Below the pieces are notes generated by a model. That model had not been told where the DNA came from. It ran no database searches and saw only the letters and a list, made by a program, of their open reading frames with translations. 64,000 nt of DNA from Mycoplasma sp. CAG:877. Its GTDB lineage: Bacteria > Bacillota_I > Bacilli_A > RF39 > UBA660. Position numbers and translations under genes: made by a program. Of the stretch, positions 5,829 to 27,228 are shown piece by piece (position 1 is the first letter of the stretch; every line of letters starts with the position of its first letter). The DNA is taken from contig HF992500.1 in the NCBI GenBank assembly GCA_000433455.1, positions 32,293 to 96,292 of the forward strand. Direction: 5' to 3'.

Positions 5829-8339
5829 TTACTTTCTCCTTTCAATGATTAATAAAGATATAAAACTAATTAGACCTAGGAAACTTAGGATTAGTCCTTC
5901 TTTTTGTAATGGGGACTTATATACTATTTTTATATTATGATTACCTTTAGGTAATTTAAATCCTAAGAAAGATTTATTTACAATTTGCTTGTCCACTACT
6001 TTATTATCAACAAATACTTTGAAGCCTTCATCATATGGAATACTTGTAACAAAGTAACCAGATTCTTTCATATCTATAGTTCCTTCTATGTTATCTCCTA
6101 AACTTTTATCTTTGTTTGCTACAAAAGTACTTTGTTTATCTATTACTTTAGAGATATCTTTGTAATTTAGTTTGTATGTTTCAATACTACCTATTTTATA
6201 AGTTCCTTTATTGAATTTTAGAACTAGACTATTTAGATCATTATTACTTGATATAACATAATGGAAGATATTGTTGTTGTTTTTATAAGTCCATGTTTTA
6301 CAAGTTCTTACGTTACTAATATTGTTGATAGTTATACGAAGATCTCCTTCTTTACAACTTTGTTCATTTAGAAGTTCAATATTTAAAATTAAGATATCAT
6401 CTTTTAGAGGAGAAGATAAATCTAAGATTAATTTACCATTTTCTTTACTTTTAATTAAAAGATAATCTTTCTTTTGTTTTATAGTTAGATTTTCTTGTTT
6501 AGAGATAGTTGCTTCTAAATTGATCTTTTTAGTTATTTTAGACTTAGTATAATTTGTTTTATCTTTGGTTACTACTCCAGATAAAAGTTTTTCAATATTT
6601 TCTGGATATGATAATTTATCAAACTCTTCTTCATTAGTTATTTTATTAGTACCATAAAATAGTGGTAAGACATTATCATTTTTATAGAAGTTTTTAGTTA
6701 TTTTTTCATAGCCTACAGGAGCATTGTCTTCAGAATAGATGTACTTGATACCCATAAATACTTGAAATAAAATATCATTATTTTGAGCAAGCATTAAGTT
6801 ATTTCTATAAGATAGAGCATTTTTAAAAGTATTTTTATAAAACTCTGTATAAAGAGGATTTGATACTGATGAATATACTGAGTTTTGATTATAACCTATT
6901 TCATATATTTCATTTATATTTTGAAGAGTGTTGTTTAAATTATTAAAACGAACTATGTCTTTTTCTTGTGATAGAATCTTTTTTATATTGGTTGTTAGTT
7001 CAGTATTTTGATTTTGAATAGGAACATAAGTATCGTTGTAATTTGAAATGTTGAAGGTAATAATCGGTACTAGTATTAGTAAGAATATAGTTAGTTTTTC
7101 CTTTATTTTTGAAGTGTTATATAAGTAGATTGTGATGTTAAATAAAAGTAAGTCTAAGTAAATTGCTGGATTATCATATCTTGTGATTATAGATAATATG
7201 ACTAGTATTATAGATATGATTAAAATATTCTTTTGAGGTATTTTTTTAGATAATAATGCCTCAATAAATTGATATAGTAAAAGACATACTATTGGGATAA
7301 AGGGAATAAATACTTTATTTCTAAAATATAAGTTACCATTTAAAAGATAGACAACTATAGGTATATTTAGTAATACTATTAAAGTAATACTTAGAAATAA
7401 GTTATGTTTCTTTTTGGATAATAGTCCTAGTATAACTGAGATGACACTTATAATAGTTAGTCCCATTGTATAGTTACTATATAAGTAGGCATCAACGTTA
7501 AATTTAGGAATTAATCTTGATAAAAAATAGATGTTTGTTGTGGTGGGAAGTTTTGTAGTACGTCCAGTTTTTAAAGTATAGAAAGTTGGTAAAAGTAAGA
7601 CTGAAGCTGATACTATAGCAATTATGATTGGAATTAAAAATAGAGATCCTTTCTTTAGGAAGTCTTTTAGATTGACTGTAGGATTTAATTCTAAGTAGCG
7701 GTATACTGCATAGATACAAATTACTATAATACTTGGTATTGAATAATAGTAACTAATCATAATTATCATAAAAATAGAAAAAGCTACTAGAGACATCTTT
7801 CCTTTTTCTAAATATTTATCTACTCCAATTAGGGCTAAAAATAAAAATGGTAAATAGTTTACAAACATAAAGTGTTTATGTAAGTGAAATAATATTGGAG
7901 CAGAAAAAATAATAAACATAGTTGTTAGAAAAGCTACTTTTTTAGTAGTTTTTGTTTTAAAAAAATAATATGATATTAAACCAGCACTTATAAAAATAAT
8001 ACCATTTAGAGTTATTATATAATCTTTCATACTTACGAATGGTAATAAGTAAGATATTAAAAGTAAGGGGTTTAAAAGACCATAATAAGAAAAGTTATAA
8101 ATATTTTGACCGGCTCCGATAGAGAGAGCAAAACTTGGAAATAAGTTTAGAGTTTTATAAAAGAGTTTTCTAAAGTAGTCTGGAAATATTATATGTTGAG
8201 TAGACCAATCGATACTACTTCCAAAAATAGAATTATCTGGTATTACTAGGAAAATTAAAAGTATAGAGAGAATAGTTATTATAAGATAGTTATAATCAAA
8301 ATCTTTATTTTTTCTTTTATTCACTTTTAGTCTTAACAC
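5829..8339 (-). CDS. yfhO: YfhO family GT-C membrane glycosyltransferase (teichoic-acid / glycopolymer glycosylation type)
   Basis: About 13 TM segments followed by a ~330-aa soluble C-terminal domain. N-terminal SSIDWSTQHIIFPDYFRKLFY resembles the YfhO signature. Confidence 0.8.
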   Translation of the reverse strand: MLRLKVNKRKNKDFDYNYLIITILSILLIFLVIPDNSIFGSSIDWSTQHIIFPDYFRKLFYKTLNLFPSFALSIGAGQNIYNFSYYGLLNPLLLISYLLPFVSMKDYIITLNGIIFISAGLISYYFFKTKTTKKVAFLTTMFIIFSAPILFHLHKHFMFVNYLPFLFLALIGVDKYLEKGKMSLVAFSIFMIIMISYYYSIPSIIVICIYAVYRYLELNPTVNLKDFLKKGSLFLIPIIIAIVSASVLLLPTFYTLKTGRTTKLPTTTNIYFLSRLIPKFNVDAYLYSNYTMGLTIISVISVILGLLSKKKHNLFLSITLIVLLNIPIVVYLLNGNLYFRNKVFIPFIPIVCLLLYQFIEALLSKKIPQKNILIISIILVILSIITRYDNPAIYLDLLLFNITIYLYNTSKIKEKLTIFLLILVPIITFNISNYNDTYVPIQNQNTELTTNIKKILSQEKDIVRFNNLNNTLQNINEIYEIGYNQNSVYSSVSNPLYTEFYKNTFKNALSYRNNLMLAQNNDILFQVFMGIKYIYSEDNAPVGYEKITKNFYKNDNVLPLFYGTNKITNEEEFDKLSYPENIEKLLSGVVTKDKTNYTKSKITKKINLEATISKQENLTIKQKKDYLLIKSKENGKLILDLSSPLKDDILILNIELLNEQSCKEGDLRITINNISNVRTCKTWTYKNNNNIFHYVISSNNDLNSLVLKFNKGTYKIGSIETYKLNYKDISKVIDKQSTFVANKDKSLGDNIEGTIDMKESGYFVTSIPYDEGFKVFVDNKVVDKQIVNKSFLGFKLPKGNHNIKIVYKSPLQKEGLILSFLGLISFISLLIIERRK

Positions 8340-9301: not shown

Positions 9302-10096
9302 TTAACTCTTCTGTTCTTTCTTTTTAGGACTTAGGATAAACTTTTCAGCTAACTTGTATTGGTCTCTATTTTTGATATATAGATATCCTATTATTGAAAA
9401 TACGATTGCTCCTACAAAATTTACAAATAGGTCTTTCATAGTATCTATTAGTCCAATATCTAAATAACCATTTTCTATTACTGTTTCTCTGGTATTATTA
9501 TCACTATAGACAATTGTTTTGTTTATATTGTCAACTACTATGGGGATATTGGCACCTGATTGGTTTAGGGTTACTGATGAGACTTTTGTTACGATACGAT
9601 CTTTTTGCATATCTTTATTTAGAACTCTATCAATTGAGAACTCAGAAAATTCCCAAAGTATACCAATTGTCATAGAAAAACAAATTGATACTAGGGCTAC
9701 AAATGATGCTGACATATCCATGTGAACATATTTATTTCTATTTAAAATATCAATTAGAGAAAAACCAATAGCAGCACAGATAAAACCATTTATAGTATGA
9801 AGCATACTATCCCACTCTTTAATAAGTCCATAGAAATTAGAAATCTCACCTAATATTTCAGAGGCAAAGATAAACATATAAACTATTATTTCTAGAGTTG
9901 ATGGTAATTCAATATTAAATTTTTCAGATATTAGACCAGGTAATGTAAATAATACTAAAGTTAGAACACACAGTAAAACGTTTTCCCAGTTACCTTTCAT
10001 ACCTTGAGCAACCATACAAACAATTACTAAAAATCTTAATAATAGATAAGTTATAAGAGTTTGTTTTGGTTTATTAATTTTCTTTTTTAACTTCAT
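9302..10096 (-). CDS. Hypothetical polytopic membrane protein (possibly DUF2238/YjdF-like)
   Basis: Five to six hydrophobic helices with a ~60-aa soluble insert. The family assignment is only a weak recollection. Confidence 0.5.
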   Translation of the reverse strand: MKLKKKINKPKQTLITYLLLRFLVIVCMVAQGMKGNWENVLLCVLTLVLFTLPGLISEKFNIELPSTLEIIVYMFIFASEILGEISNFYGLIKEWDSMLHTINGFICAAIGFSLIDILNRNKYVHMDMSASFVALVSICFSMTIGILWEFSEFSIDRVLNKDMQKDRIVTKVSSVTLNQSGANIPIVVDNINKTIVYSDNNTRETVIENGYLDIGLIDTMKDLFVNFVGAIVFSIIGYLYIKNRDQYKLAEKFILSPKKKEQKS

Positions 10097-10104
10097 ATTA
10101 CTTC

Positions 10105-11043
10105 CTACTCTTCCTTAAATAATCTATTTATATTTTCTTTGGGTAATAACATTTTCATTTTTCCTGTTACATTAAAGTTTAAAACATGCTTTGAAGTTTT
10201 ATACTCTTCTCCATCTATACACCATGACACTTTAGGTGGATCAAGAAATTCTAACTCAAAATTATCTGTTTGATAATATGTAACATTAGAAATATTTTTT
10301 AGACCATAACGACTTAATTCAAAGAAGGCTTTTAACATATCTTTTTTATTTTTTAGTGGTACTAAGGCTACTTCAAACATGCCATCATTTAGTTTTATAT
10401 CTTCACAATAAATATCATTCATACCAGCAACACGTGATGAGTTTGTTATAAAAAAGTAAGCATAATTTCCGGTGTACTCTTTACCCTCTATTCTATATTT
10501 AATGTTATAAGTATGGATACTATTTCTAAGTTGTTTTAAACCATAGATGATATAGGCTATTTTTCCATACTTCTTTTTTAGTTCTCTTGGAGTATTATAA
10601 GACATATCAATGTAGTCTCCTAGACAGCAAACGTAAATAAATGGTTCATCATTCATGTAGCAGATATCAATTGTTTTTATAGTTCCTGATAAAATTAATT
10701 CTAAATTTTTTATATAATCACTATTTAGTCCATACATGTGACCTACATCGTTTGTTGTTCCCATAGGAAGATTTGCTAAAGTTAGTTTTTTAGTTCTAGC
10801 CATATTTCCAGTAACAACTTCATTTAACGTACCATCGCCACCGGCGCTTATTACTAGATCTATGTCATTCGGAAGATTCTTTACTATTTCTGTAGCATCT
10901 TTAGGTTGTTTTGTGTATTTTATTTCGGCGTCATAACCATATTTTCGTAAAATATCATAAAAGTTCTTTTTACTACCAATGCTTTTTATTTTACCTGATT
11001 CAGGATTCATAATAATAGCACATTTTTTCATGAATAGGTTCAT
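10105..11043 (-). CDS. dagK: Diacylglycerol/lipid kinase, YegS/DagK/BmrU family
   Basis: Motifs IIMNPESGK and ISAGGDGTLNEVV, and size 312 aa, typical of the DAGK_cat family. Confidence 0.85.
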   Translation of the reverse strand: MNLFMKKCAIIMNPESGKIKSIGSKKNFYDILRKYGYDAEIKYTKQPKDATEIVKNLPNDIDLVISAGGDGTLNEVVTGNMARTKKLTLANLPMGTTNDVGHMYGLNSDYIKNLELILSGTIKTIDICYMNDEPFIYVCCLGDYIDMSYNTPRELKKKYGKIAYIIYGLKQLRNSIHTYNIKYRIEGKEYTGNYAYFFITNSSRVAGMNDIYCEDIKLNDGMFEVALVPLKNKKDMLKAFFELSRYGLKNISNVTYYQTDNFELEFLDPPKVSWCIDGEEYKTSKHVLNFNVTGKMKMLLPKENINRLFKEE

Positions 11044-11060
11044 CTCCCTTCGATAGATAT

Positions 11061-11069
11061 ATTATACCA
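11061..11069 (-). promoter_or_regulatory. Extended -10 element (TGGTATAAT) upstream of the lipid kinase gene
   Basis: Read on the minus strand. The -35 is weak. Confidence 0.35.
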
Positions 11070-11140
11070 TTTATTTAAAAATTTACTAGTGGTATAAGAA
11101 AGTTGAGGTTTTTGAAGAAAGTATTGGTTAGTTGAATGTT

Positions 11141-11220
11141 CTAATATGTTAAGTTTTTGACGTTTTTTAACATATTAGTTTGATATGTTAAGTTTTTGAT
11201 ACTTTTTTAACATATTAGTT
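11141..11220. repeat. Two tandem ~40-bp repeat units, each an inverted repeat (A)ATATGTTAA-N14/15-TTAACATATT
   Basis: Unit 1 arms at 11143-11152 and 11167-11176. Unit 2 arms at 11183-11191 and 11207-11216. The units are near-identical (gttaagtttttga...ttttttaacatattagtt). They lie in the divergent intergenic region between the lipid kinase gene and the AT3 gene. Confidence 0.8.
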
Positions 11221-11343
11221 TTGTTTTACACTTATTTATATTTATTATTTATGGTGGATTGCTAAGGAATTTTTATTTAATATATTTTAGTATTTTAATT
11301 ATAGTTTTTGTTTGATATACTTTATTATAGAGGGTGGTTTGTT

Positions 11344-12486: not shown

Positions 12487-14799
12487 TTATTTATATTGGT
12501 TTCCTCTTATTAATTTATAGATTAGTTTTAGACCTGCTGGTATTGATTTAAAGAACATTTTTATAGAACAGATTAGTTCTTTAAACATTCTTTTTATAGC
12601 TCTTAGAAAATCAAGTATAACTTTAGCATCTTCTTTTGCATAACATCTATTTAACATTATACTTATTTTCATTCTTCTTTCTGACCAATTACTTTTCTTT
12701 TTAACTTTATCTTTACCTTCATAATTAATACCAAATTTTGATTCTATATAGGCTTTACAATAGTAATAATAAGCATCATTCATTGTTTCTACTGCAAAGT
12801 TATAGTCTATATAACCATTATCTATAGGTTTAGTATTTTCTTCTTTCTTTATACCTTCATCAATAATCTTTTCAAATTTTTTAACCATTATATCTAGAGT
12901 AAAGCCTTCTTCTATTCTTTTACGACAATTCTTTTTAATTTCTTTTAAATTATTTAAGACTCTATCTATTTCATTTACATATTCTTCTACTTCTTTATTA
13001 TGCACTTCAGGAGTAGCATCTATATTACAATGAACTATACCACCTACTTTATCATTGATTAGTTCAGTTTGACCACCGACATCAGTTGATACTACTGGTA
13101 CTCCCATTGAAAGAGATTCATATGATGTTAAAGCAAGACCTTCTAATGTTGAACAGTTTACAGTTACATCACTTATTGCATATACTTCTTCTGTTTCTTT
13201 TACCATTCCAAGAAGTTTGAAATTTTCATCTACAACAGAAGCTACATTATTCATTAATGGTCCATCTCCAGCAATAACAAAGAAGACATCGTTTCGTACT
13301 TTTAAAAGCTCTTTACATATTTCTACAAACATTTCTGGACGTTTTTCTTCTGATAATCTGGCTATAAAAGTTATAATTTTTTTATCCATCGGTAATTGAT
13401 ATTTTTCTTTTAAGTTGTTTTTATTAAACTTTTTAGGATCATATCTTTTTTCATCAGTACCAATATATAAAGTTTCAGCAGTTTTCTTATTATAATTATT
13501 TACTAATTGACTCTTTGTAAAGTTATTACAGCAATATGTTCCAGTTAGGTACTTATCTACATCCATTGAACATCTAGCAAATCCTTCTCTTGGATCTTTT
13601 AAATCTATTGAGTGAATATAATCTATAAATGGTATTTGTGGATATTTTCCCTTTAAATATGGAACCATGTAATAACCATATTGTGTATTACTTACAACTA
13701 CAGCATCTACTTTTCTGGAAGAAATCATGTAATCTGTAAAGTTAATATAATCAACTGTTTCTAGGAAAGTTGACATATCATATAGTTCTGTTGCAGCCTC
13801 TTCAAATTGTTGTCTTAATGGATTATCATTTGGTAGAGTTGTTAGAACTATAGCTTCATACTTTTCCTTATCTAGACGTTTTATTAATTCTAGATTAAAT
13901 AAGTCTGCTCCTCCTACTACCATCCAAGTTAATAGGAATAAGATTTTTTTCTTTTTTGACTTTTTATATTCTGGTAAAACCATATCTTTATAAGTTTTAA
14001 CGGTTGCGTACTTATTACATTCATGTGGAAATTGAATTATTTCAACATCTTTTTTTATAGTTGCGGCAGTTTCATTAACGTAGCGCATAGCGTTGGTATT
14101 ATTCTTTTTAGCTCTTGATAATTCTCCAGTTGAACTTGTTCTATACCAGAATATAGGAGCATCTACTCTAATTGGTTTTTTACCTTTTGCTAGAAGTTTT
14201 AACCAAAGATTCCAGTCTTCATACATAGCTTTTTCTTTTATGCCAAAGCAACCTACTTCTAGTAAATCTTCTTTTCTTACCATAGAAGCAATACAAATTA
14301 AGTTTTCTATTACTTGTTGTTCAACAGTTAGGTATCTTTCCCAGATGAATTCTCTATCACCAAAGTTTACCATTGTTGTATAAGCAAATGAGGCATCCGG
14401 ATGAGTTTCTAGTGTCCAATATAGACACTCCACCATGGTCTTATCTGGGATATCATCACAATCTAGGAAGAAAACATATTTTGTATCTTTACTGGCTTTT
14501 TCAATACCAAAGTCTCTGGCCATAGATGGTCCTCCATTTTCCTTATGAAAGACTCTTATTCTATCATCCATTTTTTCTAATTCAGCTAGTTTTTTTAGTG
14601 ATTCTTTATCTTTTGAACCATCGTCTACTATTATCCATTCAAAATAAGGATATGTTTGGCTAAATAGTCCATTGGCTGTTTCTATTAAAGTTTTTCCACC
14701 ATTATAAAATGGAGTTACAATACTAATTGTTGGTTTGCTTTTCTTTACTAATTCCCCTATTTTTTCTATTTTATCTCCTGGTCTTTTACTATAATCCAT
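12487..14799 (-). CDS. Bifunctional glycosyltransferase: N-terminal GT2 domain + C-terminal GT4/GT1 domain
   Basis: GT2 motifs ISIVTPFYNGG...WIIVDDGSKD...FLDCDD. GT4 motifs VIAGDGPLMN...EGLALTSYESLSMGVPVVSTDVGG. Confidence 0.85.
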   Translation of the reverse strand: MDYSKRPGDKIEKIGELVKKSKPTISIVTPFYNGGKTLIETANGLFSQTYPYFEWIIVDDGSKDKESLKKLAELEKMDDRIRVFHKENGGPSMARDFGIEKASKDTKYVFFLDCDDIPDKTMVECLYWTLETHPDASFAYTTMVNFGDREFIWERYLTVEQQVIENLICIASMVRKEDLLEVGCFGIKEKAMYEDWNLWLKLLAKGKKPIRVDAPIFWYRTSSTGELSRAKKNNTNAMRYVNETAATIKKDVEIIQFPHECNKYATVKTYKDMVLPEYKKSKKKKILFLLTWMVVGGADLFNLELIKRLDKEKYEAIVLTTLPNDNPLRQQFEEAATELYDMSTFLETVDYINFTDYMISSRKVDAVVVSNTQYGYYMVPYLKGKYPQIPFIDYIHSIDLKDPREGFARCSMDVDKYLTGTYCCNNFTKSQLVNNYNKKTAETLYIGTDEKRYDPKKFNKNNLKEKYQLPMDKKIITFIARLSEEKRPEMFVEICKELLKVRNDVFFVIAGDGPLMNNVASVVDENFKLLGMVKETEEVYAISDVTVNCSTLEGLALTSYESLSMGVPVVSTDVGGQTELINDKVGGIVHCNIDATPEVHNKEVEEYVNEIDRVLNNLKEIKKNCRKRIEEGFTLDIMVKKFEKIIDEGIKKEENTKPIDNGYIDYNFAVETMNDAYYYYCKAYIESKFGINYEGKDKVKKKSNWSERRMKISIMLNRCYAKEDAKVILDFLRAIKRMFKELICSIKMFFKSIPAGLKLIYKLIRGNQYK

Positions 14800-16070
14800 T
14801 ATTTCACTCTCCTTATTTTCTTTGTTATTCTATCTAGTTTGCTATTTACTTTTTTAGGTATATTAAGTTCAAGTTCTTTATATAATCTTTGATTATCTTC
14901 ATACAATGCCTTATTTTCTTGTTCTAACTTCTTAATTTGTTTTATATAAGCATTGGCACTATCAATTATCCCAATTGGATTTAAATCATCTTTAGTCATT
15001 TCTGGTATATCTAAAAAGATACTATTTTCAATTGATAAATTTTCTTTAATATATTTGTAATTTTCTTCTACAATTTCTACTAATTCTTGTTCACTATATT
15101 TAAATAATTCATTCTCATTACTATCAACATTTATTCCCGAAAAGTTTTCCTCCACTATCTTCTTTATATTTTCAGGTGTAACAAAAATCATATTTCCTTT
15201 ATATCCAGATATAATTGTTGGCTTTTTAGATGCTACTGATTCTAAGGCACAACGATCGACTCCTAATAAAATGTCTGCTTTTTCTATATATGGTTTTACA
15301 TTGGAAACGGCTCCTATAAATTCGATATTTTCCTCTTTAAACATTTCCTTTATTTCAGAAAGTATTTCTCCATCGCCAAGTATAGTTAGTCTGACATCTT
15401 TATTATGTGTTTCTTTTATATGCCTAAAGATTTTAACTGCAGTATATATTGATTCTCTTTTATGTTCACATACTCTTCCAAACCAAAGTAAGTTATCAAA
15501 CTTCATATTTATTGTTTTAACTTTTTTATCCTTATAATCTGAAAAGTCTAAACTATTTCTGACTACCATATATTTGGAATCTGGTAATTCAAATAAATAT
15601 TGATGTTCTTCTTTAACATTTTATGTTATAGCAATTATTTTTGATGCACATTGAAAATATATTGGAAATAATGTTAAAAAAATTCTGTAATGGGCCATAA
15701 ACCACTCGCAACTTCCTGGAATTATATTATGTAAATAAGCCACATATCTAATATTATTTCTTAAGGCGATAGGAAGAATATATGGTATGCATGGAAATTG
15801 ATGTACATATATAAAATCAATCTTTTTAGAAAGTATTATTCTTTCTAATTTCAATATTTCTTCCCAATCAACAGCAGTATCTTGAAGCTTAAAGTCAAAT
15901 TCAATCCATTCAATGTTTTTCTTTCCTTTTAGCTTCTCCCGTAATATACCATCTCTTGAGAGAATATAACATTTTATTCCTCTTCTATTAAATTCATTAA
16001 CTTGCGTTAAGGTAAAAGTTTCAACTCCACCAATTCCTAATTGCTCTAAACAAACAAGTGCATTTTTCAT
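14799..16070 (-). pseudogene. GT4 family glycosyltransferase interrupted by a single in-frame TAA (15623..15621)
   Basis: Track ORFs 15621..16070 (GT4 N-domain, LGIGGVETFTLTQV) and 14799..15569 (GT4 C-domain) lie in the same frame. They are separated by exactly 17 sense codons after one TAA: ...IIAIT*NVKEEHQYLFELPDSKYMVVRNSLDF... Confidence 0.75.
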
Positions 16071-18472
16071 TTTTTTCTCCTTTTTCTAATATCTAACTTA
16101 CTTTTTATATTGGCTAGTTTATTTATAAACCTATATCTTTTACTATTACTTATATTTGTTAATTTTTGAGATAGCATCATGATTTTTTCATTTGCTAATT
16201 CTAATTTCTGGGTATTATATGCTTGTTCTAACAATTTAAATGTATTTTCATTTATTTCACTAAAAATTATATTTCTTTCTATTGGTCTTTTCACTGAGGT
16301 TTTTAAAGCTTGATTATATTCTTCTATAGACTTATATTTTGTTTCTTGTAATAAGAACTTATTTTTAACTTTATTAAAAAGCTTAGCACCTTTATCTGTA
16401 TTTATGATTACTGCTGATGTTCCTTTTTTATCAAAGAATTCTTTATGAACATTATATATTCCCCAATAATCACCAAGTATTATGTCAGCAACATTATTTT
16501 TTCCTTTTGCTGGACAGTTATAACAACTTTCTCTTAATATGTAATTGTCTACAAATAAAGACATCATTGGATCGTCTGCAAACTTATAGGCCTTATTTAT
16601 TCTTTTTGTTTTGTATTCAATACTAGCTACATCCCAACCATTAACTTTACTTTTAAAATTTATTTCTTCTATTTCTGTTTCAAAATTTTTTTCTATTTCT
16701 TTTACTCTTTTTTCTACAATATTATCGTTAATTACACCGTGACAAATAACACTTACTGTATATAATTTAGGATATTCTTTGGCCAAGTAAGTTTTTAGTG
16801 CAAGTATTTGACAAGGAGTTCCTGAGAATAATACCTTTTTATTTTCTCCTAAGTCTTTTTTTACATCATTAAAAATTGTTTTGACGTTACTTTGTGAATA
16901 CTTTGAGCCTTGTATTTTTTTGATATCATTAACATTGTCTATTCTAATATGTTCAACTTTTAAAGATGATATTGTTGCTCCATAGACGATACCTTGATGA
17001 GTTAGTATTTCTTTAGCTAAATAGTAGAATACTCCACCAGATGAACTTGATTGTAAAATATCTTTTTCTTTTGACTTTGCTGCATAACACTCTAAAGCTT
17101 TTGTTTGCTGGATATTTTCAATATTACGGCAACATTTTTTTCTACATAGACCACAATTTATACATTTTTTTAAATCTATTTTTGGATATAAAAATCCTTC
17201 TTCATTTTTAACCATTGTAATAGCATTTTTAGGACAGACATTTGCACAAACTTGGCAACCTACACAATCTGTTTTTTTACAAATTTTTTCTTTTTCTAGT
17301 GTTTCTAGTCTTGAACACATATTCTCATATAGCTGTTGTGATTCTTTAATAATTATTAGCATCTTCTCTTTTAGAATTTTTCTAATGTTATTTTGATTTT
17401 TGTTTAGATAATCGAATTTTTCAATTAATGAATCTTTATTTATATCTTCTATTGGTAAAACATAATCTTTGTAGTTTCCAAAGATGTCTTCAGCAATTCC
17501 TCTTGATTTTACGCTATATCCAAGTACTAAGGTTGGGACACAGGTTGAATAAGCGGCAATTGAGGCATGAGTTCTAGCTGCTATTAGTAAACTACATTTA
17601 GAGATAATGTATTTAAGTTCTTTACAATCGTAATTACCTCTTTCTAAATATAATCTTTTTTCGTTTTTATAATCTTCTGCTATTCTATCTAGAATTTTAT
17701 AGTCACTTACTTCTTCTACCATAACGTGTGGTATTAAGCATATTGAATAGTCAGTTTTTTTTAAAATGTAATTTATTAATTCCTTTATATCGTTATAATT
17801 TTCTTCTGACTTTATTGTTAAAGGACTTAAGTTCAGACCAACTATCTTTCTATTTTTATACCATGAGTTTAATTTTACTTCTTTCTTTTTTAGAGAAAAA
17901 GCAGGTTCTGGTATTAACATAAGTTTTTCTTCTGGTATATATTTCTTTATAGCATTATAGCTAATCTTTTCTCTAAGCATCAATAAATCGTATTTTTTTA
18001 AGTTTGTTATAAGATCTAAATCCGTTATTTCATCAAATAGTGAGGCACCAAATAGTACTGTTTTTTTACCTAGTTGTTTTGCTTTGGTGTTAATAGAATA
18101 AATCCACTCATTAACACCATAACAGTAGTTATCACCACCTACATGAATTGCAAGATCTGACTTTTCTAATTCTTTAACTACATCTCTTTGATAAAGCAAT
18201 TCGTAGTTATTATAATCAAAAGGCATATTTTGATACTTTTCTAATTTCTTTTTTTCGCTCTCAGTGAACTCATCATAATTTTGTCTATGATGGTTTATGT
18301 ATTTTTTAATTTTTTCTTTTTTTATTTTCTTATCATTTTCGTAGTCAAATGTTGCTAAAACAATTTCCGCTTCATTAATTTGCTCTATGACAGAGTCAAC
18401 AATAGCTTCACAACCTTTATTTTGCAGTGAACCTATTCCATATAATAATATTTTTTTCTTTTCTTTATTCAT
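16067..18472 (-). CDS. Fusion protein: polysaccharide pyruvyl transferase domain + 2x[4Fe-4S] ferredoxin + FrhB/FdhB-like (F420-hydrogenase beta-like) flavoprotein domain
   Basis: aa 1-390 look pyruvyl-transferase-like (GSLQNKGCEAI, HVGGDNYCYG). aa ~400-450 carry two Cys clusters, CVGCQVCANVCP and CINCGLCRKKC. aa ~455-720 look FrhB-like (GGVFYYLA..., GTPCQILALK, ESCYNCP). Confidence 0.75.
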   Translation of the reverse strand: MNKEKKKILLYGIGSLQNKGCEAIVDSVIEQINEAEIVLATFDYENDKKIKKEKIKKYINHHRQNYDEFTESEKKKLEKYQNMPFDYNNYELLYQRDVVKELEKSDLAIHVGGDNYCYGVNEWIYSINTKAKQLGKKTVLFGASLFDEITDLDLITNLKKYDLLMLREKISYNAIKKYIPEEKLMLIPEPAFSLKKKEVKLNSWYKNRKIVGLNLSPLTIKSEENYNDIKELINYILKKTDYSICLIPHVMVEEVSDYKILDRIAEDYKNEKRLYLERGNYDCKELKYIISKCSLLIAARTHASIAAYSTCVPTLVLGYSVKSRGIAEDIFGNYKDYVLPIEDINKDSLIEKFDYLNKNQNNIRKILKEKMLIIIKESQQLYENMCSRLETLEKEKICKKTDCVGCQVCANVCPKNAITMVKNEEGFLYPKIDLKKCINCGLCRKKCCRNIENIQQTKALECYAAKSKEKDILQSSSSGGVFYYLAKEILTHQGIVYGATISSLKVEHIRIDNVNDIKKIQGSKYSQSNVKTIFNDVKKDLGENKKVLFSGTPCQILALKTYLAKEYPKLYTVSVICHGVINDNIVEKRVKEIEKNFETEIEEINFKSKVNGWDVASIEYKTKRINKAYKFADDPMMSLFVDNYILRESCYNCPAKGKNNVADIILGDYWGIYNVHKEFFDKKGTSAVIINTDKGAKLFNKVKNKFLLQETKYKSIEEYNQALKTSVKRPIERNIIFSEINENTFKLLEQAYNTQKLELANEKIMMLSQKLTNISNSKRYRFINKLANIKSKLDIRKRRKK

Positions 18473-18572: not shown

Positions 18573-18599
18573 TAAAAAAAAGAATTTTTTACAATTCTT
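18573..18599 (-). terminator. Terminator overlapping the stop codon of the ABC-2 permease gene
   Basis: Stem aagaatt / aattctt, followed on the minus strand by an 8-nt U-run. It splits the locus into at least two transcription units. Confidence 0.6.
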
Positions 18600-19377
18600 C
18601 TACAAATGACTTTTCTAATTTTTTAAATATTAGATAGCCAATTACTAGTATTACTACTGATAATAAGCCCCATAATAATATCATCATCATATCAGGAAGT
18701 GTATGATAATAAAGAATGGAACGATATCCTTCTATTAATTGAGCCATAGGATTTATCTTTAGTACCCATTGGAATTTTTCTGGTAACATATCAGCTTTAT
18801 AAATTACTGGAGTTGCATAGAAAGCTAACATCATTACAACACTTACAAAGTGATCTACATCTCTTACAAATACTGTGATTGCTGATAAGATAAAGTTAAA
18901 TCCTAAAGTTATGATATATTGAATTAATATTAATAATGGTAATAGTAGGACGTGTACTGAGAAGCCTACTCCTGAGAATATTATAAATATAAAAACGATT
19001 ATCATTGTTATTAAAAAGTTTATTAATTGACTTGTTGTTATTGAGATTGGAATTATTTCTCTTGGAAAATAAACTTTCTTTAAGATGTTACCATTAGCAA
19101 CAACACAACCTGTACCAGTTTGGATAGCAGTTGTAAAGAAGTTCCATGGTATTAAGGCTACTATCATAAAAATAGTATAATTATCTACATCTACTCTTAA
19201 GATATATGGAAATACAAATGAGTATACAGCTAGCATTAGTAATGGATTTAAGAATGTCCAAATTACTCCTAGCCATGAACCTTTATATTTACCTCTTATT
19301 TCTTTTTTAATATTTGTTTTTAATAATTCTCTATAGTTATATAATTCTTTAAATACGTTCATTATAATCACCCGCAC
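18589..19377 (-). CDS. ABC-2 type polysaccharide/teichoic-acid export permease (TagG/Wzm-like)
   Basis: 262 aa with six TM helices. N-terminal YRELLKTNIKKEIRGKYKGSWLGVIWTFLNP is typical of ABC-2 exporters. Overlaps the upstream ATPase gene. Confidence 0.85.
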   Translation of the reverse strand: MRVIIMNVFKELYNYRELLKTNIKKEIRGKYKGSWLGVIWTFLNPLLMLAVYSFVFPYILRVDVDNYTIFMIVALIPWNFFTTAIQTGTGCVVANGNILKKVYFPREIIPISITTSQLINFLITMIIVFIFIIFSGVGFSVHVLLLPLLILIQYIITLGFNFILSAITVFVRDVDHFVSVVMMLAFYATPVIYKADMLPEKFQWVLKINPMAQLIEGYRSILYYHTLPDMMMILLWGLLSVVILVIGYLIFKKLEKSFVEEL

Positions 19378-20111
19378 ACTTTCAAGTACTCTTCAAGTAC
19401 TTCTTTGACTTGACCATCTCTATGAACTTCTCCTTCATATAGCCAAATTGCTCTATCACAGAATCTTCTAACTTGGTCCATACTATGAGTAACAATAACG
19501 ATTGTCTTACCAGCATTTTTTAATTCTATTAGTTTATTGAAACATTTATCTTGGAAATGTTGATCTCCAACTGCTAGTATTTCATCAATCAATAGGATAT
19601 CTGCTTCAACGTTTATAGCAACAGAGAAAGCAAGTCGCATATACATTCCTGATGAGTATGTTCTAACTGGATTATCAATAAATTCTTCTAATTCAGAAAA
19701 TTCAATTATTTGATCTAGTTTCTTATCTATCTCTTCTTTTGTTAACCCAAAGATAGAGGCATTGAAATAAATATTTTCTCTACCAGTAAAGTCATCATGG
19801 AATCCAGCACCTAATTCAAGTAAGGATGTTAATTTACCATCTTTGGTTATTTTTCCTTTTGTTGGATAAATGATTCTATTCATTAACTTTAGTAATGTTG
19901 ATTTACCTGAACCATTTGTTCCTATTAACGCTACACTTTCACCCTTTTTTATTTCTATATTAATGTCCTTTAAAACATGTAATACATTATTTTTACTTCT
20001 ATTTTTCTTAGAAAAGAATAATATTTTTTCTTTTAAAGTATTAGCTTTATCATAATAAAGTTTGAAGTCTTTTGAAACATGTGTAACTTTTATCGCTACG
20101 TCTTTTTCCAC
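19368..20111 (-). CDS. ABC exporter ATP-binding protein (TagH/Wzt-like, no C-terminal carbohydrate-binding extension)
   Basis: Walker A GTNGSGKST, signature SSGMYMRLAF, Walker B ILLIDE. GTG start. Confidence 0.9.
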   Translation of the reverse strand: MEKDVAIKVTHVSKDFKLYYDKANTLKEKILFFSKKNRSKNNVLHVLKDINIEIKKGESVALIGTNGSGKSTLLKLMNRIIYPTKGKITKDGKLTSLLELGAGFHDDFTGRENIYFNASIFGLTKEEIDKKLDQIIEFSELEEFIDNPVRTYSSGMYMRLAFSVAINVEADILLIDEILAVGDQHFQDKCFNKLIELKNAGKTIVIVTHSMDQVRRFCDRAIWLYEGEVHRDGQVKEVLEEYLKVCG

Positions 20112-21994: not shown

Positions 21995-22558
21995 CTATTT
22001 TACATTTATTTCTTCTACACTTTCTTTTTTTACAAGATAAGCATGTTCTGCTATTTTCATAAGTGGCAAATCAGACATTGAATCTGAGTAAAAGCCCGTT
22101 ATTTTTTTATTATTAAATTCTTCATTAAAGCGATGAACTTTTTCTTCACCATAGCAATTTTTACCTAAGAATGTGCCTGTTTTCTTACTTACTTTACTAG
22201 CAATAATTTTTATTTTTAATTTTTTCTCTAATGGTTTTAGTAAAAACTCAGGAGATGCAGATATAATTACATCACTTGTTTTACTTTGTTTTTTATACCA
22301 AGTTTTTATTTTTACTATTTTTTGTTTCCAAAATACTTCTACAGTCTTATCAATATTATCTATTTTTTTTACAAATGAAAAGAATTGTGATTTAAAATAT
22401 TCTTTATCTTTTATTTTTAATTTATATAAAATCATAGCAAATACTTGTTTTGGTAATAGTAAAATAATTGATTTTTTTCTTTTTAAACAAAATAGGTAAA
22501 AATCAATTGACGAATCTCCATCATATATTGTTTTATCAAAATCATAAACATTTAGCAT
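21995..22558 (-). CDS. HAD-IB family phosphatase
   Basis: Motif I VYDFDKTIYDG, motif II IISASP, motif III Lys (GKNCYGEEK), motif IV YSDSMSDLPL. Confidence 0.75.
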   Translation of the reverse strand: MLNVYDFDKTIYDGDSSIDFYLFCLKRKKSIILLLPKQVFAMILYKLKIKDKEYFKSQFFSFVKKIDNIDKTVEVFWKQKIVKIKTWYKKQSKTSDVIISASPEFLLKPLEKKLKIKIIASKVSKKTGTFLGKNCYGEEKVHRFNEEFNNKKITGFYSDSMSDLPLMKIAEHAYLVKKESVEEINVK

Positions 22559-22645
22559 AATAGATTTTTTTCCTCCTATAAGTTCTATCTTTGTATTTAT
22601 CGACGACTTATTTATTTCTTTGGTAGTTCGATATAACTATTTACA

Positions 22646-22654
22646 ATTATAGCA
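22646..22654 (-). promoter_or_regulatory. Extended -10 element (TGCTATAAT) in the 184-nt gap between the UbiA-like and HAD genes
   Basis: Read on the minus strand. No convincing -35. Confidence 0.35.
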
Positions 22655-22742
22655 TATTAAGTAATTATTTCATAAAAAAATGTCGTTTCTTTGACCTTTT
22701 TTAAGCTATTTAACATAGTATTTTGACAAAGTTATAGGCTTA

Positions 22743-23624
22743 TTATAACAAGTACAATAAGCCTCCCATTACTAAAACATATAAAATTACGATCGCTATT
22801 AGTTTTTTGTCTGATAAAACCACTTCGATAGGATCACCGTGTGAGTTTCCTTCAATGTTTAGACTATATAGCTGTAATATTATCATTACTAGTGGTATAG
22901 TCCAGAATAAGTAATCGTTACCTATTCTTGCTACTGTTGCTGGATCAACACACCATAATGTATAAGATACTATAGCTAGTCCTAAGCAAACGTACATATT
23001 CTTGTCTAAGAATTCTTTATTGTATAAACTTAGAACTTTTCTACTCTTGTTACCATTTTTAATAATTTCATTTCTTCTTTTACCAAAGCCTAAGTAGAAT
23101 GATCCAAAGATAATCATTAAGTATAAGAATTTAGAAACTTCTACATCTACAACTACTCCACCATACATAACACGTAAAACGAAACCTGATACTAGTATTA
23201 CGACATCGATGATAGGTTCATTCTTTAACTTTTTACTATATAAAATATTTAGAATTAAGTAAATTAATGGAATTAATATTACAAAGATATTTTTAGTAGT
23301 CTTGAAGAAGAAGACCATTATAATAGCAATTACGATAGCTAGTAAAAGCATTACTATATAGGCTTGCTTTTTACTAACCTCTCCTGATGCTAGAGGTCTA
23401 AATTTTTTTACAGGATGTAATTTATCTTTTTCAATATCACTCATATCATTTAGAATATATACTATTGATGATGTAAAACAGAATACTATAAAGGCAAGTA
23501 AACATGTTAATAAATAATTTAGATTAAAAAGATTTAAACTAAAGAAGATTGGTAAGAAAATTAAACCATTTTTTAACCAATGTTTTGCTCTAATAAGTTT
23601 AATGTACTTTTTCATTTGTTTCAA
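22743..23624 (-). CDS. UbiA-superfamily polyprenyl-phosphate phosphoribosyltransferase-like protein (DPPR synthase / Rv3806c-like)
   Basis: Eight to nine TM helices. LNDMSDIEKDKLHPVKKFRPLASGEVS matches the NDxxDxxxD..HPxKxxRPxAxG region I recall from decaprenyl-phosphate 5-phosphoribosyltransferase. Confidence 0.75.
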   Translation of the reverse strand: MKQMKKYIKLIRAKHWLKNGLIFLPIFFSLNLFNLNYLLTCLLAFIVFCFTSSIVYILNDMSDIEKDKLHPVKKFRPLASGEVSKKQAYIVMLLLAIVIAIIMVFFFKTTKNIFVILIPLIYLILNILYSKKLKNEPIIDVVILVSGFVLRVMYGGVVVDVEVSKFLYLMIIFGSFYLGFGKRRNEIIKNGNKSRKVLSLYNKEFLDKNMYVCLGLAIVSYTLWCVDPATVARIGNDYLFWTIPLVMIILQLYSLNIEGNSHGDPIEVVLSDKKLIAIVILYVLVMGGLLYLL

Positions 23625-25350
23625 CTCCTATTCTCCAGCTATATTTATAGCGCATATTTTCTGTGGTAATGTCTTCTTTGATGGTATAGTTTACACCATT
23701 GTCATTTAAGGTATAGTAATAACCATATAAGTCATGCATACCAGTAAGTTTTAATTTTAAGTCTTTTGTATTTTTCATTTCTTTTATATCTTTTGATATC
23801 TGGCTAAATGTTTCTAGTTGTTTTACATTAATATAAGCATAAGCTAAAGTGTTAAGACATAGTAGTAATAATGATAAAATAGTTATGGCTTTATTTACTT
23901 TTGTTTCATTATATTTTCTTATATATACTAAGGAAAGAATTGCTCCTACTGGGAATAAGTATAGTTGAGGAACATATCTTGCCCACCAGTTTTCACCTAC
24001 TAAAATTGAACTTATGATAATTGCTATTGCTGGTAAATAAATGTATGGAGCAAAAGATTTTTCTTTTCTTATTATTTTTACAACTGAATATATAAGTATT
24101 GGGGTTGTAATTATTACAATTAAGGCAAATAATGGACCAAATCCACCTATTCTTACATCGGGTGCATATAATTCACCAATTTCTGATTTGTATACTTTTA
24201 TTGGTAATTTTAATTGAGGTTCCCTATCTCCATAGACAACATTTTCTGTTTTAGAAAATAAAGATACAACAAATTTTTCGACCATATTTTTATTTTTAAA
24301 AGATTTAGGTTGCATTGTAGTTATAATATCAACTTTATCTTTACCAATGATTGGATATAATGGATTATGATGATCTATAGTGTTTTTTACATAAGAGTTT
24401 AAACCTACAAAGAAGATTGCTGTTACAAAGACAATTATAAAGTTAATAGTAACTCTTTTAAAGATTGTAACAAAGTCTTTATCTTTACGATATTTTATTA
24501 ACCAGTAAAAATAGAATGTTGCGGCTATAACACCTGAACATAATAGACCGGTATATTTAATATTAGTAAAGATTGTACAAATTGATACTAGACATAACCA
24601 AATCCAAATATTTGTCTTTTCTTTAGGATTTACTAGAAATAATAGTAAGATTTCTATTAGGAATAAAATTCCCATAATACCATCAACATAGTATGTAAAG
24701 AATTGAGCTAAAACAATAGGATTTAATACTACTAAACTGGATATTATATAAGACCATTTTTTATCTAGAATTTTTCTTAGAATGTTAAAATTAATAATGA
24801 ATAACATAATAGATAAAATTAGGGTTATACATTTACCACTTTCAATATTTCCTGTCATATTATAAATTGTTGCTGCTACAATCCAAGTGGCTTTTGGATA
24901 ATGTTCAATCCATAAATCTATTTTTACGCCTTTTTCTATTTTTACAACATTATCATTATTTTCTTGGAACTTTCTACTAGTTTCATACATTGGATTCCAA
25001 CCATTTTTTATAAAAGCTATAGCAGTTTTATGATAAGAATTACCATCAACTGTTAAATCGTAAGTCTTATTATAAATAAATGGTACAACTAATAATATGA
25101 ATAAATATATTCCAATTACAATTAGGATATCTTTTGTCTTTTCACTCTTTTTATATAGTAATACGATAATTGGAATTGTTATACTTAATATTTGAATAAG
25201 GCTTAAAGTATTTGCTAGTTTTAATAATTCAAATGCTGTAAATAGTGATAAAACTAGTAAAAAATAACCAGCCAACATTACAAATAAAAGCATAGAGTTA
25301 TTTAATTTGAACTCTTTATTCTTCTTTTCTTTTTCTCTTTTTATTTTCAT
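23599..25350 (-). CDS. Large polytopic membrane protein, candidate GT-C fold glycosyltransferase
   Basis: 583 aa with about 12 TM helices, an acidic first loop (YDLTVDGNSYHK) and a ~80-aa soluble C-terminus. Its 3' end overlaps the UbiA-like gene by 26 nt. The fold assignment is inference. Confidence 0.45.
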   Translation of the reverse strand: MKIKREKEKKNKEFKLNNSMLLFVMLAGYFLLVLSLFTAFELLKLANTLSLIQILSITIPIIVLLYKKSEKTKDILIVIGIYLFILLVVPFIYNKTYDLTVDGNSYHKTAIAFIKNGWNPMYETSRKFQENNDNVVKIEKGVKIDLWIEHYPKATWIVAATIYNMTGNIESGKCITLILSIMLFIINFNILRKILDKKWSYIISSLVVLNPIVLAQFFTYYVDGIMGILFLIEILLLFLVNPKEKTNIWIWLCLVSICTIFTNIKYTGLLCSGVIAATFYFYWLIKYRKDKDFVTIFKRVTINFIIVFVTAIFFVGLNSYVKNTIDHHNPLYPIIGKDKVDIITTMQPKSFKNKNMVEKFVVSLFSKTENVVYGDREPQLKLPIKVYKSEIGELYAPDVRIGGFGPLFALIVIITTPILIYSVVKIIRKEKSFAPYIYLPAIAIIISSILVGENWWARYVPQLYLFPVGAILSLVYIRKYNETKVNKAITILSLLLLCLNTLAYAYINVKQLETFSQISKDIKEMKNTKDLKLKLTGMHDLYGYYYTLNDNGVNYTIKEDITTENMRYKYSWRIGVETNEKVH

Positions 25351-26307: not shown

Positions 26308-27228
26308 TTACCTCTTTATTAATTTATAATAAACCTTTGGACTTATTTTTAATAATACTCTCTTTACTTTTCTAGGAAGTGTGTCTGTTAAAAGATTATC
26401 AAATACTTTGTTGTTTTTTAGTTTTTTTAGATATATTCGATAGTCTTTATTGTTTAGTTCAGTTATTTTTAATATCATACAGTTAGCAATATAACTTTTG
26501 AAGATTTTCAAATCACCTTTTATTTCTTTGGATTCTTCTAGTAGATTGTTGTAGTGATAATACATATCGTCTACTTTTCTTTTTGTCCAGTCATAGTTTT
26601 TATTATTCATAATACTACCACTACGTCTATAGTAATCATAACCAATATATTTGATTGAGTTTACTTTTTTAGCTTTTAGAATTATTAAAGGCACTAAGCC
26701 AAAATCTTCATGAACAGTTCCTTTCTTAAAGGCAAACTTTTCTTTTTTGTAATAACTCATTTTATAAGCGTAACACCAACAACTATCTATGAAATGAAAT
26801 TTTACTATTTTTTCAAAAGCTTTTTTACCAGTTAAATTTTCAAATGTTTCTTCTTCATATTTTGTAATTTCTTTGTTATCATTAACAGTTTGAATTTGAA
26901 ATCTTATTACGTCCGGATTATTTTCAGTTGATTTATCTAGTTCTTTAAGCAAATCTTTTTCCCAGTAATCATCACTATCTAGAAAAAGTAAGTATTGTCC
27001 GTGAGCTTTTTTTACGCCAATATTTCTAGCTTCACTTACACCTTCATGGGCAGATTTGATTATAGTTAGATCGTATTTTTTTGCTTTTTCAATACTTTTA
27101 TCTGTACAACCATCATCTACTAGTATTACCTCAAAATCTTTAAACGATTGATTAAAAACACTATCTAGACATCTTTCTATGTATTCTTCAACATTATATA
27201 CAGGTATTATTATACTGAACTTTGGCAT
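26308..27228 (-). CDS. GT2 family glycosyltransferase
   Basis: Motifs FSIIIPVYNVEEYI, ILVDDGCTD and LFLDSDD. Confidence 0.9.
   Translation of the reverse strand: MPKFSIIIPVYNVEEYIERCLDSVFNQSFKDFEVILVDDGCTDKSIEKAKKYDLTIIKSAHEGVSEARNIGVKKAHGQYLLFLDSDDYWEKDLLKELDKSTENNPDVIRFQIQTVNDNKEITKYEEETFENLTGKKAFEKIVKFHFIDSCWCYAYKMSYYKKEKFAFKKGTVHEDFGLVPLIILKAKKVNSIKYIGYDYYRRSGSIMNNKNYDWTKRKVDDMYYHYNNLLEESKEIKGDLKIFKSYIANCMILKITELNNKDYRIYLKKLKNNKVFDNLLTDTLPRKVKRVLLKISPKVYYKLIKR

Follow-up and report, generated by a model that had tools for sequence, protein, structure and literature searches.

Why a polysaccharide pyruvyl transferase should be joined in one polypeptide to an iron-sulfur flavoprotein is the question raised by a gene in a 64,000-nucleotide stretch of DNA from Mycoplasma sp. 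CAG:877 (contig HF992500.1, positions 32,293 to 96,292; hereafter the window, whose coordinates we use unless another locus is named). The encoded protein, here called P0001, combines a pyruvyl-transferase-type domain, a two-cluster ferredoxin domain, a flavo-iron-sulfur domain resembling FrhB, the beta subunit of coenzyme F420-reducing hydrogenase, and a basic helical tail. Our comparisons suggest that P0001 is probably a single-chain, two-step synthase of lactyl (1-carboxyethyl) ethers, which would work on the cytoplasmic side, with a lipid-linked wall glycan as its acceptor, ahead of export by an ATP-binding cassette (ABC) transporter. The initial annotation of this DNA had proposed, by analogy with MurA/MurB, that enolpyruvyl transfer is followed by reduction to a lactyl ether. 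This proposal is supported, by correlation and by remote homology: the same pair of gene families marks the Escherichia coli O69 and O124/O164 antigens and the Klebsiella K66 antigen, and the ketal polymers O149 and colanic acid go with the transferase alone.

The open reading frame spans positions 16067 to 18472, encodes 801 amino acids and is open throughout, with zero internal stops. The description of a single frame joining three parts was therefore correct, and the strand, which had been left unstated, is the minus strand. All of the motifs quoted for it were found in the protein (GSLQNKGCEAI at residues 13-23, HVGGDNYCYG at 110-119, CVGCQVCANVCP at 403-414 and CINCGLCRKKC at 437-447). 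The three domain assignments were likewise upheld by a Pfam scan, in which every match exceeded its gathering score, by an AlphaFold2 model and by Foldseek. The model, for which 43 homologues were used as input, has a mean predicted local distance difference test score (pLDDT) of 92.1 and a predicted template modelling score of 0.84. The PS_pyruv_trans domain (PF04230, E 2e-27) occupies residues 18-320 (17513-18421, minus strand, as are all the following segments) and scores 97.1 bits against a cut-off of 25.3, covering positions 1-279 of the 280 in the profile. In the model the GT-B-like fold of this half runs to about residue 345, and its Foldseek matches in the PDB are the GT-B enzymes BshA and UDP-GlcNAc 2-epimerases, with template modelling (TM) scores of about 0.6-0.7 normalised to the target. 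A helical linker of residues 346-395 (17288-17437; DSSP helices 346-358, 360-379 and 381-395, pLDDT >90) leads from the transferase to the 2x[4Fe-4S] ferredoxin domain, residues 398-450 (17123-17281). Here Fer4/Fer4_7 match at 402-449, Fer4_7 with 32.9 bits against a cut-off of 27, and the profile matches in the PDB are polyferredoxins and NuoI.

The C-terminal half contains the two Pfam families of FrhB-type proteins in their usual order. FrhB_FdhB_N (PF04422, E 2e-8, 34.7 bits against a cut-off of 22) covers residues 462-530 (16883-17089), a part that aligns to the FrhB-family chain 8rja_E and to FrhB chains and in which two motifs, SSSGG and GSKY(S)QS, are conserved; FrhB_FdhB_C (PF04432, E 2e-23, 83.6 bits against 23.3) covers residues 545-712 (16337-16840). 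Foldseek matched this half with a probability of 1.0 to 8rja_E, 8riu_B, FrhB (6qii_B and 4ci0_C), Fsr (7np8) and HCAR (5dqr), at TM scores of about 0.62-0.65 normalised to the target. The protein ends in a set of helices (733-742, 745-775 and 778-800 in the model) that make up residues 733-801 (16070-16276) together with a basic tail carrying a conserved NSKR(W/Y)K motif.

Conserved residues were taken from an alignment of 43 fusions. In the transferase half the invariant positions include N18, G20, E22, G112, D114, R167, H249, K287 and R300-T301-H302. In the ketal-forming transferase Pvg1p, R217 and the triplet R337-L338-H339 (R-x-H) have been modelled as contacts of phosphoenolpyruvate (reviewed in PMC6801904). 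R167 and the R-x-H triplet of P0001 are candidates for the corresponding contacts. The eight ferredoxin cysteines are also invariant (C403/C406/C409/C413 and C437/C440/C443/C447, two CxxCxxCxxxCP motifs), and the FrhB-like part has four further invariant cysteines, C554 (in GTPCQ), C577, C650 and C653. Three of these four lie in the GTPCQI and C..C motifs, which align to 8rja_E, and C577 faces no cysteine there. Because the four extra cysteines are invariant and their motifs match 8rja_E, they probably hold a third [4Fe-4S] cluster adjoining the flavin site. The two ferredoxin clusters predicted earlier thus stand, with both motifs present and their cysteines invariant, and the probable complement of the protein rises to three [4Fe-4S] clusters and a flavin.

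An indication of what these modules do together comes from enterobacteria. The comparison drew on organisms whose polymer structure is known along with their genes. In the Klebsiella capsule-locus catalogue, a "coenzyme F420 hydrogenase" (HG203) together with the pyruvyltransferase wcqF occurs in K66 only, and the pyruvyl transferase wclZ together with a nitroreductase occurs in K22 and K37 only. The K-antigen composition table, read by counting its columns, gives a beta-Glc-O-lactyl side chain for K66 and beta-GlcA-O-lactyl for K22 and K37 (Glc, glucose; GlcA, glucuronic acid), and it lists a pyruvylated sugar in none of the three; for K22, the title of a cited paper names the lactyl ether as well. 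A PF04432 survey of 401 Enterobacteriaceae genomes gave 2 matches, and these genes were then searched against 5426 complete E. coli genomes. FrhB-like genes were found in four settings, namely the O69 clusters, the O124/O164 clusters (typed by NCBI annotation), an untyped cluster of the IAI1 type and a small plasmid, and in all four the FrhB-like gene has a PS_pyruv_trans gene as its direct neighbour or separated from it by one gene. Lactyl groups are present in the E. coli O antigens O58, O124, O146, O69 and O150, and pyruvate ketals in O112ac, O149 and O156 only (reviewed in PMC7685785). As a negative control we examined O149 in E. coli UMNK88, where the pyruvyl transferase stands alone in the cluster and PF04432 matches nowhere in the chromosome. 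Similarly, wcaK, which serves the ketal of colanic acid, has no FrhB-like neighbour in the E. coli genomes that carry the O69, O124/O164 and IAI1-type clusters. In every case that could be checked, a transferase paired with a flavin reductase was matched by a lactyl ether in the polymer, and a lone transferase by a ketal.

The K22/K37 pairing resembles that of P0001 in that a pyruvyl transferase accompanies a flavin reductase and the polymer carries 4-O-lactyl-GlcA. The reductase, however, has the nitroreductase fold, binds flavin mononucleotide, has no iron-sulfur cluster and is unrelated to the FrhB-like half. In a further setting, a preprint links the proposed glucolactilic acid of Campylobacter N-glycans to a pgl operon that includes a pyruvyl transferase gene.

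The role of the FrhB-like partner had been described in the initial annotation as not established, which is probably not wholly so. Judging by the title of a 2006 paper, from which alone the gene assignment is taken, two genes for glucolactilic acid have reportedly been confirmed genetically in Shigella boydii 17. The names lgaA and lgaB are wrong for these genes, as their matches are legionaminic-acid genes.

Three of the enterobacterial loci are described here in their own right. The galF-gnd cluster of E. coli IAI1 (L205, NC_011741.1 2158297-2182333), also found in seven other complete genomes, contains a flippase, an FrhB-like gene, a pyruvyl transferase, EpsG, a family 2 glycosyltransferase (GT2), galE and a further glycosyltransferase, and has no serogroup name. 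By the rule above its polymer should carry a lactyl ether; the cluster was left out of the correlation. The 25 kb E. coli plasmid pBDSF8-3_3 (L213, NZ_JBTWTU010000003.1) is rich in insertion sequences and has two lactyl-type modules side by side, one of the K22/K37 type with a truncated nitroreductase and a pyruvyl transferase, and one with a flippase, an FrhB-like gene and a pyruvyl transferase. In the O124/O164 cluster of E. coli TUM18780 (L115:10095-11230) the pyruvyl transferase is annotated as two open reading frames, 10095-10505 and 10529-11230, and may be broken.

The initial annotation had called for a domain scan and for a survey of fused versus split arrangements. Both were carried out, and the domain scan upheld the assignments. 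A scan of species genomes recovered at least 598 related loci, and the arrangements were counted in the best 80. The two halves lie no more than 8 kb apart in 74 of these 80 loci. Thirty are clean fusions, from Erysipelotrichaceae, uncultured Bacilli, many Clostridia, Muribaculaceae and one Moraniibacteriota genome. In about 18 the halves are adjacent genes, in about 20 only a gene for a Wzx flippase stands between them, and in 3 they lie on opposite strands at a distance of about 5 kb. Cultured carriers of the split pair include Ruminiclostridium cellobioparum DSM 1351 (L154) and Thermoclostridium caenicola DSM 19027 (L176). These counts bear out the earlier remark that separate, neighbouring genes commonly encode the two functions. 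At the protein level, each of the 120 best clusters listed has a length of about 800 amino acids and contains both families, and an exhaustive search made without profiles returned 8132 representative proteins at E <=1e-30, many full-length fusions among them. Within the genus, intact full-length copies without stops were found in 4 of 20 other species genomes (95, 85, 50 and 50% identity), a patchy presence that is expected of an accessory gene for a surface glycan. A sequencing or assembly artefact was rejected, since intact copies are present across many independent assemblies. The Rosetta-stone value claimed for the fusion is therefore real; it is not new, as the fusion belongs to a large and widespread family and is not rare.

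The reverse order of domains (ferredoxin-FrhB-transferase) was seen in P0149, P0158 and P0211, and the occurrence of both orders implies independent fusions. Triple fusions with GT2 or family 4 glycosyltransferase (GT4) domains also exist (P0135, P0144, P0152, P0141 and P0129; the first three carry GT4), and the glycosyltransferase domains fused on in this way point to action on a freshly glycosylated, lipid-linked acceptor. A stand-alone JGI gene call of 423 amino acids (P0272), named "hypothetical protein", is 97% identical to residues 392-760 of P0001 and may be either a split form of the gene or the result of a different start call.

These data bear on one alternative, in which the N-terminal half is an ordinary ketal-forming pyruvyl transferase of the CsaB/WcaK kind and the iron-sulfur flavoprotein does some other job, for example sensing redox state to gate pyruvylation, or carrying out an unconnected reduction on a different sugar of that polymer. 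All PF04230 members that have been characterised biochemically make ketals (PMC6801904). CsaB is the best NCBIfam match of the N-terminal half, though the ketal-enzyme equivalogs for both CsaB (63.4 bits against a cut-off of 213.1) and WcaK (24.6 against 399) fall far below threshold on P0001. The ketal transferases CsaB, WcaK, WcfO and Pvg1p share with P0001 the family, the GT-B-like fold and probably the conserved R-x-H motif; they are stand-alone enzymes that close a cyclic ketal, whereas P0001 is joined to a reductase. Fusion of the modules in both orders, with their co-location in 74 of the best 80 loci, argues instead for consecutive steps on one substrate. Further evidence against a ketal is that the enterobacterial pair marks lactyl ethers and that ketal polymers lack the partner gene, and K66 has the pair and no ketal sugar. 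A CsaB-like role in anchoring SLH-domain proteins was rejected, because PF00395 has no match in the host genome (94% complete), which thus offers no such protein to bind a CsaB-type ketal. Taken together, we consider it unlikely that P0001 simply makes a ketal.

Several observations nevertheless weigh against a lactyl ether as the product. In 6 of the best 80 loci a closely related transferase has no FrhB-like gene within 8 kb, and at the two of the six that were inspected (L160 and L180) no reductase of any family stands beside it. A reductase is therefore not a constant companion of this transferase subfamily, and these six loci speak for the ketal alternative. The FrhB-like half shares only about 22% identity with the enterobacterial proteins (E 1e-7 and 4e-7), in an alignment that spans the core and the long C-terminal helical extension up to residue 800 of P0001, and BLAST gave no significant alignment between the transferase half and the E. 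coli O69 transferase. The E. coli FrhB-like proteins also lack the two-cluster ferredoxin domain of P0001 and have a single CxxCxxC motif. With homology this remote, the transfer of function rests on the shared pair of Pfam families rather than on orthology. Finally, the literature that we searched contains no assay of an enzyme that makes lactyl ethers of sugars other than muramic acid.

The likeness between P0001 and the enterobacterial pairs of O69, O124/O164 and K66 is that PF04230 and PF04422/PF04432 modules lie together within a glycan locus, and the polymers of these pairs carry lactyl ethers and no ketal. They differ in that the enterobacterial modules are separate genes, at times with wzx between them, whereas those of P0001 are fused, and in that the enterobacterial polymers are assembled by the Wzx/Wzy route whereas P0001 is encoded beside an ABC transporter.

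What the analysis shows is the arrangement of domains, the conserved cofactor motifs, the coupling of the two modules in genomes and the correlation of the pair with lactyl ethers in enterobacteria. From these we infer, for the source organism, which substrates are used and in what order the steps occur, as well as the flavin, the donor of electrons and the product. By the chemistry of its family, the PS_pyruv_trans domain would add phosphoenolpyruvate to one sugar hydroxyl with release of phosphate, giving an enolpyruvyl (carboxyvinyl) ether. Instead of engaging a second hydroxyl to form a ketal, this ether would have its double bond reduced by the flavin of the FrhB-like domain, leaving a 1-carboxyethyl ether. 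The electrons may come from a donor of low potential; ferredoxin is plausible, since the host genome encodes a pyruvate:ferredoxin oxidoreductase that could reduce it. They would pass through the two ferredoxin clusters and the probable third [4Fe-4S] cluster to flavin adenine dinucleotide (FAD). Hydride would then be delivered from the FAD at the site where FrhB proteins bind F420.

The proposed chemistry is like that of MurA and MurB, in which enolpyruvyl transfer from phosphoenolpyruvate to a sugar hydroxyl is followed by flavin reduction to a D-lactyl ether (PMC6801904). There is no homology between the two systems, and neither an EPSP-synthase fold nor a FAD_binding_4 or MurB_C domain was detected in P0001 by the Pfam scan or Foldseek. 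Electrons come from NADPH in MurB and would come through iron-sulfur clusters in P0001; the acceptor of MurA is a nucleotide sugar, and that of P0001 is probably a lipid-linked glycan, as it is for CsaB and WcfO (PMC6801904). One ordinary gene with the EPSP-synthase fold (MurA or AroA) is present elsewhere in the host genome, and P0001 is accordingly a system apart from MurA/AroA. Sugar lactyl ethers would thus be reached by two routes that share no homology.

The same lactyl ether could also arise by another route, in which a cyclic pyruvate ketal is formed first and is then opened reductively by the FrhB-like domain to the ether and a free hydroxyl. Such a route fits all of the correlations between genes and structures, and it fits the ketal chemistry for which the family is known (PMC6801904). 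Set against it, flavin reduction of an activated carbon-carbon double bond has a direct precedent in MurB, and HCAR, a relative of FrhB by fold, is a ferredoxin-dependent reductase that works without F420. We know of no precedent for the enzymatic reductive opening of a ketal, and we regard this route as very unlikely; reduction of an enolpyruvyl ether is preferred.

The resemblance of the C-terminal half to FrhB also raises the question of F420. The fold of P0001 and its GTPCQ and C..C motifs are shared by FrhB, FdhB, the N-terminal half of Fsr, the F420-reducing subunits of Fwd/CODH complexes (8rja_E and 8riu_B) and plant HCAR; Fsr and 8rja_E have an N-terminal ferredoxin domain, as does P0001. 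Enzymes of the FrhB family exchange hydride with F420 and HCAR reduces a side group of chlorophyll, whereas the partner of the FrhB-like domain in P0001 is a sugar-modifying transferase. The C-terminal half might therefore be a true F420-dependent oxidoreductase that is supplied with F420 from elsewhere, because its best fold and sequence matches (8rja_E, 8riu_B, FrhB and Fsr) are F420-reducing enzymes. The host genome moreover encodes a protein of the F420-ligase family PF01996 (G000:C7, L197:1471-2661, plus strand; 396 amino acids, E 1e-51), which has a long insertion when compared with the profile. However, in this genome (1.41 Mb, 94% complete) a CofE equivalog was not found and no FO synthase scored above the cut-off (24 bits for CofH, where 374 are required), and the PF01996 protein is for this reason taken as a paralogue. 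The same module is present in antigen clusters of E. coli and Klebsiella, which to our knowledge do not make F420, and one member of the FrhB family, HCAR, works with ferredoxin and FAD. The initial annotation had held F420 to be unlikely, and this view stands; dependence on F420 was rejected as unlikely, given that neither an FO synthase nor a CofE equivalog was found in the host genome, and a supply from elsewhere is extremely improbable.

For some fifty years, bacterial antigens have been known to contain lactic-acid ethers of sugars besides muramic acid, and further carriers include Shigella dysenteriae types 3 and 5 and the exopolysaccharides of Butyrivibrio. The reaction that forms them appears to be genetically indicated already, to which P0001 would contribute not much more than one further member and the setting of an ABC transporter. 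Since the fusion is common, the value of this finding lies in the family rather than in the single copy. Should the rule prove valid, sequence could be used to predict lactyl ethers in many gut anaerobes and to correct many database names of the type "coenzyme F420 hydrogenase beta subunit". A single polypeptide with both proposed steps and a domain for electron entry is also a convenient object for chemistry in vitro.

P0001 is the sole PF04230 gene and the sole PF04432 gene of the host genome and sits in a long minus-strand operon for a wall glycopolymer. In the order of transcription the operon starts with a fusion of an O-antigen-ligase-like membrane domain and a GT4 glycosyltransferase (27228-29543, minus strand, 771 amino acids), followed by two GT2 genes, a 583-amino-acid protein, UbiA, HAD, an acyltransferase-3 and a GDSL protein. 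It continues with an ABC ATPase (ABC_tran, 19368-20111, minus strand), an ABC-2 permease (ABC2_membrane, 18589-19377, minus strand) directly upstream of P0001, P0001 itself, a GT4 glycosyltransferase and a 770-amino-acid protein with GT2 and GT4 domains, the third member of the cassette (12487-14799, minus strand; all by Pfam except where stated below). This gene content indicates that the polymer would be exported by the ABC-transporter route. In the close clade of fusions (>=44% identity), an ABC ATPase/permease adjoins the fusion in about 15 of 21 loci, the remainder being mostly on short contigs, and copies of the GT2+GT4 protein that are 38-86% identical adjoin it as well; more distant relatives of P0001 lie in loci of the Wzx type.

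The clade with the three-part cassette of ABC transporter, fusion and polymerase-like GT2+GT4 transferase suggests a further reading, in which the lactyl ether is not a decoration of each repeat and instead caps the non-reducing end, stopping chain growth and marking the glycan for export. In ABC-transporter pathways for glycans, terminators of the WbdD type combine a modifying enzyme, a coiled coil and a membrane-binding C-terminal helix, and cap the non-reducing end. Compared with WbdD, which adds a methyl phosphate in E. coli O9a, the C-terminal helices and basic tail of P0001 would play a like part. The helices 745-775 and 778-800 adjoin a tail whose final 30 residues have a net charge of +11. 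For a membrane-binding helix, however, the segment is short, and its hydrophobic moment, which reaches no more than 0.36 where the whole protein averages 0.23, is unremarkable. A net charge of at least +4 is found in the tails of 39 of the 43 homologues, in which the NSKR(W/Y)K motif recurs, and the tail is probably a contact for the membrane or for a partner. We consider the capping role unlikely. If it were true, the need for low-potential electrons would tie chain length or export to the redox state of ferredoxin. The tail of P0001 has no significant similarity to the tail of the downstream GT4, with which it has in common only a short pattern of NSK followed by basic residues.

The GT4 gene that follows P0001 (14799-16070, minus strand) has a start that overlaps the stop of P0001 (ATGA). 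Its 423-codon frame is split by one in-frame TAA at 15621-15623, and the two pieces match the N-terminal and the C-terminal GT4 domains; the interruption may mean that the gene has decayed to a pseudogene, or it may reflect variation between strains or a mistake in the assembly. In the upstream part of the operon, the HAD phosphatase, the UbiA-family prenyltransferase and the 583-amino-acid protein, which has no Pfam match, are grouped at 21995-25350 (minus strand). Their layout recalls the synthesis of a polyprenyl-phosphate pentose donor with an extracytoplasmic transferase. A YfhO protein is encoded farther downstream, at 5829-8339.

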